A DNA stretch of 64,000 nucleotides from a virus (IMGVR_UViG_3300042013_000067:160001-224000), one strand, 5' to 3'. Shown: positions 12,546 to 62,002, counted from the stretch's first letter. The notes: a model not told the origin generated them from the letters alone. Numbers and translations are program-made.

Positions 12546-12587
12546 AGCGGAAGGTATGGGGAAACCCGTACCTCCGCTCTTTATGCC
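12546..12587 (+). terminator. Hairpin with TTATGCC tail
   Basis: GCGGA-AGGTATGGG-GAAA-CCCGTACCT-CCGC then TCTTTATGCC. Confidence 0.7.
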
Positions 12588-12603
12588 TTAAAAGGAATGT
12601 GTC

Positions 12604-13008
12604 ATGAGTGAACAGCTGCAATGGTTGGAAGAGAATGGACCCACCCTCTTAAAACCCAAGACCCTGAATTGGGATCGTGGACCGATCAACCCGGATTCTA
12701 ACGCAGCTCACACTTACGTGATCAGTGGCTTCGATCCGTCGAACAATCCTGAGGCACCGGCGGATACTCCAGATGAACTCTTCATCTATTTCCAGAACGG
12801 TGTGATGACTGAGGTCGGGTCTAACGGGGTTACCCCTCAGGTATTGCTCGAAGTGTTGATTGATCGTTACGAAGGTTTCCAACAAGGTCCTTTTGCGTGT
12901 GAAGAAAATGACCGGGCGCTTACTGGTATGCGTGAAGCCCTCCAAGCGATCAACGATCGTCAGGCCGAACGAGCTGAGCGTGGTGTGTTGAACACCATGC
13001 AGAAGTAA
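12604..13008 (+). CDS. tad1: Tad1-family anti-Thoeris/anti-CBASS nucleotide-signal sponge
   Basis: AHTYVI...IYFQNG...NGV...LLEVLIDRYEGFQQGPFACEEN.RAL..MREAL..INDR..ERAERGVLNT is colinear with Tad1 as recalled (AYHEYVI...IKFQKG...HGV...[51 protein letters not shown]). Confidence 0.85.
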   Translation: MSEQLQWLEENGPTLLKPKTLNWDRGPINPDSNAAHTYVISGFDPSNNPEAPADTPDELFIYFQNGVMTEVGSNGVTPQVLLEVLIDRYEGFQQGPFACEENDRALTGMREALQAINDRQAERAERGVLNTMQK

Positions 13009-13043
13009 CCGTGATTACCTTGGATTCAAAAGAATCTTAGGTC

Positions 13044-13051
13044 TATATCAC
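13044..13051 (+). promoter_or_regulatory. phiKZ-type early promoter core TATATCAC
   Basis: Intergenic; matches the phiKZ early consensus TATATTAC (7/8); preceded by AAAAGAA as at 15303. Confidence 0.65.
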
Positions 13052-13489
13052 GGACATGGTAATCGGTAATGAACCCAGCCGTGACGCTGTCCAAGGGAAA
13101 CAAACTAAACTTTATCCCGCACGGACGAAGCCGGTTGATTGACTCCAGAATCAAGGACTAGACTCAATCTCCTTTGGATAGCCGATCTGTTAGGTTCATC
13201 GCCAATTTACACCGAGGCATTGCACATGCATCTGAAAGCTTTAATTGCTTCTAACACACGACGCTTCTCTTGGGCGGTCTGTATGGACCGTCAGCTTGGT
13301 GACGATGCTCTAGGAGTCGCCATGGATCTGTTCCCTAGCTGGGTACGATTAGAAGACTCTGCGCAGAATGAAGTGCTGCATGGCAACATCGCAATGGCTC
13401 ACTGGTTCGATGAACAGCAAGTCCCGTTAATCGCTGAAGTGTTGACGAACGAACCCCACCTTCTTACTGACCCACAAGGTACTAATGTC

Positions 13490-13915
13490 ATGACTGACAA
13501 GAACTCTGTTGCAAAATCGATTGCCTATGCTGACAAGCACGATCTCTGGGGCAAGATCACTCGAAACGAGAATGGCACCATCGCCGCCACCGAAGACTTT
13601 GTTGAATCGACGGCTGCGCTCGACGCTGGCATAACCATGGACCAAGTGAAGAAATTCCAGAAGGCCGTTGGCGAATTGATTCCAGCGGCTATCTACGTCG
13701 GTGGCCAACTCGCGGGCGAAGGTTTCAAGGCAGATCCAAACCTGACCGAAACCGGTTTCAACTTCAACATCGGCGGCACTCAGAAAGTGTCGGCGCTGTA
13801 TAACCGCGATAGCAAAGACCACGTGGTCGTTGTTGTCGAAACCACACACCGCAGCGCGGAGTTCCAACGTGTGGTCACCAACTTGAATTCGATGTTCGAC
13901 GACATCAATTCTTAA
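13490..13915 (+). CDS. Hypothetical protein (141 aa) ending MFDDINS
   Basis: Start moved from 13139 to ATG 13490 (AAGGT RBS; codon usage changes there). Confidence 0.75.
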   Translation: MTDKNSVAKSIAYADKHDLWGKITRNENGTIAATEDFVESTAALDAGITMDQVKKFQKAVGELIPAAIYVGGQLAGEGFKADPNLTETGFNFNIGGTQKVSALYNRDSKDHVVVVVETTHRSAEFQRVVTNLNSMFDDINS

Positions 13916-13934
13916 GCTGGTCGTTTTACCGTGG

Positions 13935-13975
13935 TAGAAGAAGGGACCCGCGGGTCCCTTCTATTATTCTTTTTT
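13935..13975 (+). terminator. Intrinsic terminator
   Basis: GAAGGGACCC-GC-GGGTCCCTTC plus a T-run. Confidence 0.75.
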
Positions 13976-14002
13976 CACCAACCCTCACTATAAGGGAATC
14001 GC

Positions 14003-59297: not shown

Positions 59298-59594
59298 ATG
59301 GAAGCACTCGGCATTTTACTCTGCATCTACTTTTACTACCGTTGCTATAAGGTAGCTTCTCATCTACTTGGGCCATTAGGCGATTCTAATATTCAAATGT
59401 TGCACAATCGCTTTTTTACAGCAAAGAATGCCGCGACCACGATTGTGGTGGACGGTTTGTTGCGTGGACTAGCGATTAGTGCATCCCCAATCTTCGGGGT
59501 TCCTGAACTTACTGTGGTCTTGATCTTTCATACGTGCATCACCGCAGCCGGTATAACCACGGCTGTACAGCGTAGTATCCAAGGGCGTCTGTAA
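59298..59594 (+). CDS. Small membrane protein
   Basis: GAGGT RBS; 2-3 hydrophobic segments. Confidence 0.6.
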   Translation: MEALGILLCIYFYYRCYKVASHLLGPLGDSNIQMLHNRFFTAKNAATTIVVDGLLRGLAISASPIFGVPELTVVLIFHTCITAAGITTAVQRSIQGRL

Positions 59595-59959
59595 AGAATT
59601 ACAGCTCCTGTAGATGGTTTGCGTTGATGGCATGTCGCTCTCACCGTAGACAAGGATGCTACCGATGCTTAGCTCGATGCTTTTGCTTCTTGCTTTGTCG
59701 GTGCAGCACTCCAATGAACAACCCCGGTACTATAGCAAGACACACCTGCATACGGACGATTCGCACTGGGTGGTACCCCGTGCCTATCCATCTACGCCGC
59801 CGCGCTCCTATCGCCCGCCTCATCAACGGGCGCGACCTTGGCCGCGTTTGTCCGTGATTGCCTGTACTTGCACCGGCTTCCTTCGCCCATCTGGGTTACT
59901 GGCACACGGCAAGGGTCCGTGTAAGCTAGAACTCCCTGATCGGCATACGAGGAGGCACT

Positions 59960-60163
59960 ATGTACTCCATTGGGTATCTGTTGCATTGGGCGCTGTCCGA
60001 TAGCTGCTTTACTGCTCTCCGGCTAGCTATGCGGTTGAGCCGTAGTTTAATCTTGACGAGACCGCTGTTCCATCGCGCTGCAAACCCCGTCGCAGGGAAA
60101 GATAATCTTAATGTATCCCAGGTAACCCATAAACCTCTATCCGTGCACTTGGCTAAGGTCTAG
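59960..60163 (+). CDS. Small hypothetical protein
   Basis: GAGGAGG RBS. Confidence 0.45.
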   Translation: MYSIGYLLHWALSDSCFTALRLAMRLSRSLILTRPLFHRAANPVAGKDNLNVSQVTHKPLSVHLAKV

Positions 60164-60212
60164 GTCAGCACCCATAGAGACGACTGGGAAAGTTAAGCTT
60201 TCCATTGCGACT

Positions 60213-60258
60213 GTAAAGAGCCCCGCGCTGGGGCTCTTTATGCCCCTTTTATGCCGTC
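60213..60258 (+). terminator. Boundary hairpin with a duplicated TTTATGCC tail
   Basis: TAAAGAGCCCC-GCGCT-GGGGCTCTTTA-TGCC-CCTTTTATGCCGTC. Confidence 0.7.
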
Positions 60259-60281
60259 TCGCTTATTAGGAGTGAGCTTTT

Positions 60282-61148
60282 ATGCCACCTCGTCTTAAAG
60301 AAATGTACACTCGCTTTACGAGCTTCTTTGAACAGGAGCTGCTTAATCGCGTACGCAATAATCCACTTCAAACACCGTCCACCGATCTGGGTAATGATAC
60401 CGTGCAGCCTGCCGACCTTTTGCTCAGCCACACCCAAGCTCATTTCCCGGCATACGAACCTACGCCGGAAGATGAACACATCCTCAGCCAACTGGCTGAT
60501 AACCAATCGAATGACCCTATCCATGTGTTAGCGCGCAAGATTGACTCGTTCGACAAGTACTACACCTACTCCGATACCGCCAGTACACTCGCAGACGGCG
60601 ATCGGTTGTCCAAGGAACTCACCGAGGGCATCGCCGCAGTTGAAGATGCACGCGTGCGTGGGATTCTGGGTCGGTCGATGTGGGCCGATGTGCGCAGTGA
60701 GTTGTTAGTCGAGTTCCCATGGTTGGAAACACGCTTTCGCAGTACCGCGTACACCCGACTGATTGCTGAAGGCGTTCCTCCAGAGAATGCCAAAGTATGG
60801 GTCGGTACAATCAATGGACTACGCGACCTGATGGCCCGCGTCTATATCGCCGCTAACGCTACTGGTCAGCTGTTGGTGTGGGCCAATGATTACGAACGGG
60901 CACGCTACTATGACCGTTTCCGTAAGAACGATCTGTTCTGCGGTGTAGCTCTACCGCCAGCGCTGTATGTGGAGGTCGACGCATTGGCTGATATGATCGA
61001 CAGCCGTGGCTTCCGCCAAGCACTGGCTTTGGGTAAATCTGAATACAGTGTCGTTCGCCAAGTTTTGGAGAATGGCGACTGGATGTACACCGTACATCGA
61101 TTCGATAACCCGATGCTGAGTTTCTTCTTCGCAGCTAAGCCGGCTTAA
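60282..61148 (+). CDS. Hypothetical protein
   Basis: AGGAG RBS; 288 aa. Confidence 0.8.
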   Translation: MPPRLKEMYTRFTSFFEQELLNRVRNNPLQTPSTDLGNDTVQPADLLLSHTQAHFPAYEPTPEDEHILSQLADNQSNDPIHVLARKIDSFDKYYTYSDTASTLADGDRLSKELTEGIAAVEDARVRGILGRSMWADVRSELLVEFPWLETRFRSTAYTRLIAEGVPPENAKVWVGTINGLRDLMARVYIAANATGQLLVWANDYERARYYDRFRKNDLFCGVALPPALYVEVDALADMIDSRGFRQALALGKSEYSVVRQVLENGDWMYTVHRFDNPMLSFFFAAKPA

Positions 61149-61199
61149 ACCCGGCCTTACCTATCCTCAACGCACTACCCAACCAAAGGAAACTTCACT

Positions 61200-61766
61200 A
61201 TGTCAGATTCTAACGAAACCTTCGGCGCCAATGCTACAGCAGTACCATGCAATCCACTCGGCGCGTACAAGCTGGGTGACCATGAAGGCGATAGGGCGCA
61301 AAAGGACATCGTACCGTTCCAACTGACTATCATCGACCTGCATGAGTTGGTCACCGGTAGTATCGCTGATAAACGTCGCTTGGCTATCGCACCAGAACGC
61401 ATGGGTCGTGCTCTGATGGCATATAACCGTGCGATCGGTGAAGCGATTCTGGAAACCAAGACTTACACCGTGCTGATGATGACGGTTACGTTGGATCAGG
61501 CCAAAGAGGTCGAAAATCTGGTCTTCCAACAACCGACACTGGGTATGTCTATGGGTATGCCCCCAGGGCGTGCCGGTGGTTACATTGGTGCACAGCAATT
61601 GCAGTTCGCCGTGTTCTCTGACCTGACCCAACCTGGTGTTCATATCAGCCTGCATCCGTACGTGTGTCAAGGTTTGGGTGGTGTGGGTGAAGGCGCAATG
61701 ATTAACATCGCCCTAGGTCTGCTGTTAGGTGAAGACCAGAACATCGGTCTTGGCTTCGGTAAGTAA
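61200..61766 (+). CDS. Hypothetical protein
   Basis: AAGGA RBS; 188 aa. Confidence 0.8.
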   Translation: MSDSNETFGANATAVPCNPLGAYKLGDHEGDRAQKDIVPFQLTIIDLHELVTGSIADKRRLAIAPERMGRALMAYNRAIGEAILETKTYTVLMMTVTLDQAKEVENLVFQQPTLGMSMGMPPGRAGGYIGAQQLQFAVFSDLTQPGVHISLHPYVCQGLGGVGEGAMINIALGLLLGEDQNIGLGFGK

Positions 61767-62002
61767 TCATTAAGGTGCGGGGTAGCTTCGGCTGCCCTGC
61801 ATCTTTTCTTTTTTGCCGTCTGCAAGGTTCTACTGGGGTGCCCCTTATACAGACAGAAAGCAGTAGCTTCGCATACACCCAAGTACCTTACCGGTACCTG
61901 TCTATGCCCTCTCAGTTACTGCCTATGGACTCTTACACCTCGGGTACGCCCAATGTACCCTTTAGCTACTAATGGCGCCCTAGCGCCTTATAGGAGGCTT
62001 CA

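Follow-up and report, generated by a model that had tools for sequence, protein, structure and literature searches.

Repeated hairpins at gene ends are already known as transcription terminators in the phages phiKZ and 201phi2-1, where they have been mapped by RNA sequencing. In phiKZ, ONT-cappable-seq placed 133 termination sites, 61 of them with the motif BCCYCCCCHWWDGGGRRGGBYTTATKYYGT (a hairpin, then TTAT); six of the motif terminators are bidirectional and lie between convergent genes, and 9% of the phage terminators are antisense to annotated genes (Putzeys et al. 2024, PMC10914365). The same method placed 132 termination sites in 201phi2-1, 15 of them bidirectional: motif A (n = 59) is similar to that of phiKZ, motif B (n = 26) accompanies motif A in 21 terminators and makes the hairpin longer, and in a terminator trap in P. 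chlororaphis the terminators with several motifs were the stronger ones, the authors suggesting resistance to antitermination (PMC11512511, 2024). The present work concerns a family of intergenic hairpins with constant outer arms in a 64,000-nucleotide (nt) stretch of viral DNA, IMGVR_UViG_3300042013_000067:160001-224000 (the window), and in the genome from which it comes. By analogy with phiKZ and 201phi2-1, these elements are very probably transcription terminators of the same sequence-conserved family.

The source genome, a complete 283,622-bp virus record with direct terminal repeats of which the window is positions 160001-224000, is that of a phiKZ-like (Noxifer-like) uncultured jumbo phage of 283.6 kb with ~51% G+C. 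Its closest relative in the phage collection is Pseudomonas phage Noxifer (77.6% nucleotide identity, in the SNF2 helicase region). The sequencing runs listed for it are two rhizosphere metagenome DNA runs. Positions below are those of the window unless otherwise stated.

Gene-end hairpins with constant arms

The elements are laid out as (stop)-ACGRCATA / GC-rich stem-loop / yTATGYCGT, with ~22 copies in the window (Table 1) and ~75-95 in the genome. The genome-wide consensus of the intergenic hairpins is (stop)-ACGRCATA / (G)CCCCTCCC-loop-GGGAGGGG(C) / yTATGYCGT; anchored on the stem, the tail reads T-T-T-A/T-T-G-C-C-G-T, and so matches the YTTATKYYGT found directly after the stem in phiKZ. 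Over the 12 nt past the stem the mean T fraction is 0.42-0.51, the proximal tail being UUUAU and the remainder GYYG. True U-runs are present at the copies starting at 17134, 46290 and 61774, and many other copies have no U-tract.

A sequence-only reading of the window had described dispersed gene-boundary hairpins with constant outer arms, and this description is borne out at all 17 of the coordinates that it cited. The 5' arms directly follow a stop codon at 17134 (TGA-CGGACATAAG), 24223, 26706, 37990, 44316, 46290, 57251 and 58468, and 3' arms of the form TTATKCCGT, or shortened, follow a hairpin at 12581, 17730, 21480, 25463, 26740, 32021, 40636 and 60248; a further 3' arm given at 61813 is there in shortened form, but only as GCCGTC after a U-run. 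The bulges of 1-2 nt reported between inner and outer stems are real and systematic. The inner stems, described there as unrelated, share the genome-wide consensus given above, but the window copies do vary more than the genome average (all are GC-rich, of 6-11 bp).

The arms are far more frequent than expected. TTATKCCGT has eight matches in the window against 0.93 expected, a number reached in 0/100 shuffles, and ACGGMATA has 16 against 3.3; genome-wide, the arm motif gives 32 matches and its reversed control six. Hairpins with at least one arm number 95 in the genome and those with both arms 24, compared with 30 and 0 when the flanks are reversed, and 73 of 672 arm matches are preceded by a hairpin whose stability is within the top 2% of the background folds (~13 expected). 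The reverse complement of a stop codon lies 0-2 nt beyond the arm in 50 of 98 arms, where chance would give 11.5%. The 7-mer spectrum of the intergenic regions is dominated by inner-stem and arm words, led by CCCTCCC, the most intergenic-enriched 7-mer of the genome (54 of 66 copies intergenic). These motif-anchored tests were used in place of a whole-genome scan of 44-nt folds at -14 kcal/mol, which was dropped because its 1623 matches were mostly genic hairpins.

A covariance-model scan, as the sequence-only reading had proposed, also recovers the family. The model (R1), trained on Noxifer elements only, gives 70 strand-hits at ~40 loci in this genome (best E = 4.5e-13), 21 strand-hits at E <= 1 lying in the window. 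Five Noxifer elements with G-rich-first stems were excluded from R1 (MAFFT misalignment), so that it favours CCCTCCC-type stems and under-scores the more varied copies of the window. Elsewhere, a 20-base element pattern also matches other viral contigs, at least 22 of them, each 190-324 kb long; a pattern of the arms only (15 specified bases) matches viral contigs mostly by chance, with three real elements among the 80 loci listed. No Rfam family covers the element.

The distribution over gene junctions fits a signal at transcript ends. With our own gene calls for the genome, 19 of 23 convergent junctions carry an element, 15 of them two-armed, and none of 23 divergent junctions does when perfect stems are required; at co-directional junctions there are 28 copies with the 3' arm only, 17 with the 5' arm only and nine with both. 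This placement, together with the match to the phiKZ/201phi2-1 terminator motif, supports the phage-specific termination or processing signal that was one of two proposals in the sequence-only reading. TATGYCG is kept even where no 5' arm could pair with it (28 copies with the 3' arm alone), which argues that the tail is selected as sequence and not merely as an extension of the stem. The 17 copies with only a 5' arm have more U-rich sense tails (T fraction 0.51 vs 0.42), and look like ordinary sense terminators combined with a phage-type antisense tail.

Comparison with Noxifer points the same way. For 46 of 74 elements both flanks are syntenic in Noxifer, most with a gap of equal size, and at these 46 junctions Noxifer usually keeps the element, with arms retained on the same side in 38 of 52 cases. 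Identity is 79-92% at the positions after TATK and 42% in the loops, and of 35 inner stems compared 30 differ between the two phages and yet are perfect in both: the pattern is that of a hairpin selected as structure and of arms selected as sequence.

Putative release point and arm asymmetry

In our own scans the sequences of phiKZ, Noxifer and 201phi2-1 have the same two-armed layout, and motif B of 201phi2-1 probably corresponds to the 5' arm, to judge from the sequences at five multi-motif sites. Eight validated termination sites are printed in PMC11512511; in the 201phi2-1 genome sequence all are on the plus strand, and the distance from the last base of the stem to the site is exactly 8 nt in each. 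Seven of the eight are the pyrimidine just before the conserved G, that is, stem-TTTATGY[Y] with the break before G. In this phage, Noxifer, phiKZ and 201phi2-1 the G of this Y-G step lies 8-10 nt from the stem (mode +9). By analogy, the conserved YYG would mark the release point, at the distance classic for intrinsic terminators.

A probable sequence of events, again by analogy, is that the RNA folds into the GC-rich hairpin, usually CCCCUCCC-loop-GGGAGGGG, that the fixed tail (U)UUAUG-YY is transcribed next, and that release comes ~8 nt beyond the stem, where pyrimidines precede the conserved G. The tail would then combine a short U/A-rich weak hybrid with a pause-like Y-G step, replacing a long U-tract. 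With its Y(-1)/G(+1) step and a G at -10, the tail would resemble the elemental-pause consensus of bacterial RNA polymerases. The 5' arm, ACGRCAUA, complements the tail imperfectly: in its own strand it would lengthen the stem, and in the other strand it would itself be the tail, giving a bidirectional terminator. This double use would explain why the complete two-armed copies lie where genes converge, each arm next to a stop codon. One-armed copies would be one-way terminators, or a sense U-tract terminator joined to an antisense phage-type tail.

The two arms are not simple mirror images. After TATG, one arm has C and the other T in 78 of 90 two-armed copies (23/27 here, 24/29 in Noxifer, 17/18 in phiKZ and 14/16 in 201phi2-1), far above the expectation for independent arms, and in the four phages only 12 of 115 elements have a Watson-Crick pair just outside CAUA/UAUG; detection was anchored on CATA...TATG, so that perfect palindromes stay included. 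The outcome is a bulged A or an A.C mismatch in the RNA of one strand and a bulged U or a G.U pair in that of the other. The orientation of the asymmetry is maintained at orthologous Noxifer sites, and in R1 scores it appears as ~55 vs 30 bits. Which arm type (C or T) faces the sense or antisense side shows no dependence (p = 1), the orientation along the genome is mixed, and the Y-G step is equally far from the stem for both arm types. No description of this asymmetry was found in the papers that were read. Candidate explanations are that an outer helix less stable than the RNA-DNA hybrid keeps the release point defined; that a perfect duplex of ~20 bp, an RNase III substrate, is avoided; or that a perfect DNA palindrome is avoided. 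Perfect palindromic copies are rare and not forbidden: Noxifer (NC_041994) has a perfect 18-bp palindrome, ACGGCATAGAGCCCTCCC-ctagc-GGGAGGGCTCTATGCCGT, at 79518-79556, orthologous to the junction at genome position 65747.

The fixed putative release point at YY-G and the break in the helix after TATG are concrete features open to mutational test. As terminators, the family would be a source of compact, strong, bidirectional elements and would lend itself to the study of how the unusual sigma-less phage RNA polymerases stop; it would also map the ends of transcription units in this genome (~40 strong sites, 75-95 in total), an aid to annotation. Several long open reading frames (ORFs) that cross an element are probably spurious or have a later start.

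Alternative explanations

Several points weigh against termination as the role of the elements. Termination in this phage is argued by analogy with phiKZ and 201phi2-1, and 3'-end mapping by itself leaves trimming back to a stable hairpin as another source of the ends; in 201phi2-1, moreover, the trap assays relied on the host RNA polymerase and not on phage enzymes (PMC11512511). Antisense termination at the 17 co-directional copies with only a 5' arm is something that we infer, and the junction counts use crude codon-score gene calls. A simple model that always favours the longer stem would not lead one to expect that Watson-Crick pairing just outside CAUA/UAUG is almost completely avoided. 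Finally, the count of zero at divergent junctions comes from the perfect-stem detector: the imperfect-stem copy at 31987-32031 lies in a gap called divergent, between the minus-strand helicase gene and a plus-strand gene at 32089. An ORF-poor stretch of 150-190 nt ends at this copy, and a promoter-like word lies downstream of it; we infer that the copy is a candidate terminator of a small RNA.

The ORF-poor stretch (31840-31990) also contains AGGAGGTGATCCAG (31891-31904), a complement of the 16S rRNA 3' end, and looks like a small non-coding RNA with a phiKZ-type terminator at its end.

A more elaborate version of the termination reading gives the tail TATG a reader. The core of the phiKZ late promoter is likewise TATG, with G as +1, and this genome encodes a homologue (49% identity, E = 7e-174) of gp123, the beta-like subunit of the phiKZ non-virion RNA polymerase, in which nine of 14 pocket residues are identical, the main stacking residues among them. 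The beta-lobe pocket of GP123, the late-promoter reader, might also recognize the tail TATG, pausing the polymerase while the hairpin forms, with release three bases later at YY-G; the non-Watson-Crick position would keep TATG out of the helix. If true, starting and stopping would depend on a single pocket. In the transcribing complex this pocket is reported as incomplete, and we consider this role in termination doubtful: possible but unsupported. A variant with TATG in the pocket at the moment of release was rejected, since the mapped ends put TATG at -6 to -3 and not at -3 to +1.

Another possibility is that the elements stabilize or process RNA 3' ends, the polymerase reading through and the mapped ends arising by exonuclease trimming or an endonuclease cut. 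In its favour, a U-tract is missing from many copies, the helix of the two-armed form, long and almost flush at its end, would be a poor substrate for 3' exonucleases, and 3'-end mapping does not distinguish release from trimming. Trimming would, however, be expected to stop nearer the helix and less uniformly than the single distance of 8 nt shared by the eight mapped 201phi2-1 ends, and the conserved YYG lies at or just beyond the 3' end, where a trimmed RNA would hold no information to select; in the 201phi2-1 terminator trap, the elements lowered expression of a downstream reporter (PMC11512511). We regard stabilization or processing without true termination as very improbable, and termination as the better reading of the same ends.

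The shared TATG, with its G at +1 in the phiKZ late-promoter consensus, could also mean that each arm is a late promoter for the non-virion RNA polymerase and the element mainly a restart point. Against this, the 23 divergent junctions, which must contain promoters, gave no scored element; the fullest copies are at convergent junctions, where an outward promoter would yield antisense RNA only; the phiKZ promoter P119L has no upstream hairpin; the mapped 201phi2-1 ends at such elements are 3' ends; and a separate promoter-like motif, CTATATCA, lies ~20-25 nt downstream of six elements. Arms acting as promoters are thus unlikely, and a family that serves mainly for restarting would be very unlikely indeed.

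The promoter-like word past these six elements (aGgtCTATATCAc, ~20-25 nt on) stands where transcription must restart. As a candidate promoter, aGgtCTATAT(C/T)Ac occurs in the window at 13043, 15318, 32046, 38048 and 58526 and in 22 copies genome-wide, 17 of them intergenic, 20-96 nt upstream of start codons and in sense orientation; the six copies ~20-25 nt after an element form terminator-then-promoter modules. TATATTAC as a promoter word showed no enrichment (two matches, one expected).

The weakest explanation, raised as the other proposal of the sequence-only reading, is that the elements are attC-like recombination sites or REP/RAYT-like mobile palindromes that shuffle accessory genes; their conserved ends, variable core, extrahelical bases, stop-codon adjacency and many dispersed copies would suit it, and some loop sequences recur among elements, but it is largely refuted and hardly credible now: synteny breaks relative to Noxifer, which that reading itself had named as a test, fall at 32 of 71 element junctions and 102 of 233 others (304 junctions; odds ratio 1.05, p = 0.89; 1.01 with only gaps of at least 40 nt compared), 46 of 74 elements are syntenic on both flanks, and stems change through compensatory substitution and not copy replacement. 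The recombinase that it had suggested seeking elsewhere in the genome was not found either: the complete genome has no profile match for a tyrosine recombinase (PF00589, 283.6 kb searched, control positive in 14/14 genomes), a Y1/HUH transposase (PF01797) or a serine recombinase, and the positive controls work.

Window copies and comparison with known systems

The best copy in the window, a putative bidirectional terminator at 26704-26750, lies between the convergent genes 25993-26703 (+) and 26748-29192 (-). It scores 55 bits in R1 on the plus strand (E = 4e-13) and 28.9 bits on the minus strand, and the RNA of either strand folds into a helix of ~20 bp that is interrupted by single-base bulges (-35.5 kcal/mol, z = -6.2, for one fold; -30.4 kcal/mol, z = -5.3, for the other). 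By analogy with 201phi2-1, the predicted RNA 3' ends are C26746 (+) and the base opposite G26708 (-).

Table 1. Hairpin copies and tRNA genes of the window, in order of position (a point in the strand column: no single strand given).
Feature	Position	Strand	Sequence and details
3'-arm-only (shortened) copy	12544-12589	+	imperfect hairpin GCGGAAGGTATGGGG-GAAA-CCCGTACCTCCGC, then TCTTTATGCCTT; downstream of ORF 12251-12535 stop; RNA fold -25.6 kcal/mol, z = -4.5
Two-armed copy	16068-16118	.	GATCGACATAA / CCCTCCCC...GGGGAGGG / TTTTATGCTG; R1 36.4 bits (+, E = 5e-8), 17.1 bits (-)
5' arm + U-rich tail	17134-17181	+	TGA-CGGACATAAG / CCCTCTCC-TACG-GGAGAGGG / TATCTCTTTCTTTCT; R1 13.7 and 12.9 bits
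Copy 60 nt upstream of tRNA-Asn	17697-17740	+	AAGCATA / GCCCGCTC-TTAC-GGGAGCGGGC / TTTATGCCA; R1 21.7 bits, E = 6e-4
tRNA-Asn (GTT)	17804-17877	+	
Two-armed copy	18512-18553	.	GAGCATAGA / GCCGGGG-GCAA-CCCCGGC / ATTATGTCTG; just upstream of rtcB (18580-19839); R1 15.8 bits
Copy after rtcB stop codon	19859-19896	+	GGCATAGT / GCCGGGG-GCAA-CCCCGGC / TCTTATTCCATC
tRNA-Lys (TTT)	20833-20906	+	
3'-arm-only copy	21456-21488	+	GGGGGTC-TTCG-GACCCCC / GGCTATTCCGTC; -21.2 kcal/mol
Copy	24223-24268	.	TAA-CGGAATAAAGGACA / CCGGC...GCCGG / GCTTATGTCCACC; R1 10.6 bits
Copy	25233-25265	+	TAGCCCTCCC-AATT-GGGAGGGCTA / TATTCCGAC; TATTCCG arm kept at orthologous Noxifer site
Copy	25438-25474	+	AAGCAT / GGGGACC-TTCG-GGTCCC / TTATGCCGTC
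Two-armed copy, best in window	26704-26750	.	GGCGGACATAG / GCCCCTCCCA-CGA-TGGGAGGGGC / TTTATGCCGTCA
Copy	31987-32031	+	AATAGG / GTCCTCTCC-GAAA-GGGGAGGGC / CTTATTCCGTC; R1 23.1 bits, E = 2e-4; fold -27.4 kcal/mol
Copy	37990-38035	+	TAA-ACGGCATAGA / GGAGCC-CACCGA-GGCTCC / TCGTGTTATTCCCAG
3'-arm-only copy	40614-40644	+	TAGAGCTGGGG-CAA-CCCGGCTC / TATTCCGTT
Copy	44316-44358	.	TGA-CGGCATAA / GCCTGCCC-TATG-GGGCAGGC / GTTATGTTCTTTTC; R1 31.3 bits (-), 27.2 bits (+); antisense-facing full arm, sense side TTATG + U-run; fold -23.1 kcal/mol, z = -4.2
5' arm + U-tract	46290-46337	+	TAA-CGGCATAGA / CAGGGAGC-TACG-GCTCCCTG / CTCTTATTTCTTTTTT
Weak 3'-arm-only copy	49638-49670	+	AGGGCTTC-TACG-GAAGCCCT / TTTCTATTCGGTC
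Copy, 3' arm shortened by next gene's ribosome-binding site	57251-57292	+	TAA-CGGCATAT / GGTCCACGGG-GTTT-CCCGTGGACC / TTTATGG
5'-arm-only copy	58468-58504	+	TAA-CCGACATAAG / GCAGGGG-CTAA-CCCCTGC / CTGTAC; promoter-like CTATATTA 20 nt further on
Doubled-tail copy	60214-60258	+	TAAAGAGCCCC-GCGCT-GGGGCTCTTTA; TGCCCC, then TTTTATGCCGTC
Hybrid copy	61774-61820	+	hairpin, U-run TCTTTTCTTTTTT, then GCCGTC
Weak copy	62559-62601	+	GGACGGCAGAA / GAGAGACC-CCTAA-GGTCTCTC / CGTATATGCTG; conserved at orthologous Noxifer junction

At 60236-60258 a single hairpin is followed by two tails in series, TTTATGCCCC and then TTTTATGCCGTC. An armless intrinsic terminator, CGTCAGGGG-TTCG-CCCCTGACG followed by TTTTTCTTTTATTTC, lies at 42944-42990, so that ordinary U-tract terminators coexist with phage-type ones. 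Among nine large window ORFs, Pfam scans found an SLT domain in a 2316-aa protein, thymidylate kinase, RtcB, an SNF2-family helicase and thymidylate synthase; the 2316-aa ORF is at 3302-10252, with the SLT transglycosylase domain C-terminal (residues 1949-2038). The long ORF 17732-18058, which overlaps tRNA-Asn, is probably spurious.

How do the elements compare with known systems? Integron attC sites, whose boxes read RYYYAAC/GTTRRRY, resemble the elements in being imperfect palindromes beside stop codons, with extrahelical bases and a centre that varies between conserved ends. Here, in contrast, no integrase is encoded, the elements show no link to the gain or loss of genes, both orientations and strands are used, and the arms, compared with these boxes by reading, are CGGCATA/TATGCCG.

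Bacterial bidirectional intrinsic terminators, in which a hairpin is flanked by an A-tract and a U-tract, share part of this layout: a single palindromic hairpin serves both strands of convergent genes, and the complement of the tail, lying upstream, makes the stem longer and termination more efficient. Unlike them, the elements have a conserved word, CGGCATA / TATGCCG, in place of the A- and U-tracts, with a fixed putative release point, and the pair outside CAUA/UAUG is almost never Watson-Crick.

The likeness to phiKZ, a jumbo phage that also has its own multisubunit RNA polymerases, begins with the unit itself, a GC-rich stem-loop of the CCYCCC/GGGRGG type that runs straight into YTTATKYYGT, and extends to its placement: each genome has dozens of copies at the ends of genes, with bidirectional ones where genes converge. 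In our own scan, phiKZ also has a 5' arm (acaGCATAA...aTTATGtcgt) with the same arm asymmetry. In the present phage the arms have a greater length and G+C content (ACGGCATA / TATGCCGT), only the hairpin and 3' tail are included in the phiKZ motif as quoted from the publication, and the phiKZ sites are RNA-mapped whereas those described here are read from sequence. With 201phi2-1 the elements share the motif A hairpin and tail, probably the hairpin-elongating motif B, and bidirectional copies (15 in that phage, in which longer stems gave stronger termination); its release geometry, 8 nt past the stem at YY-G, is the geometry predicted here.

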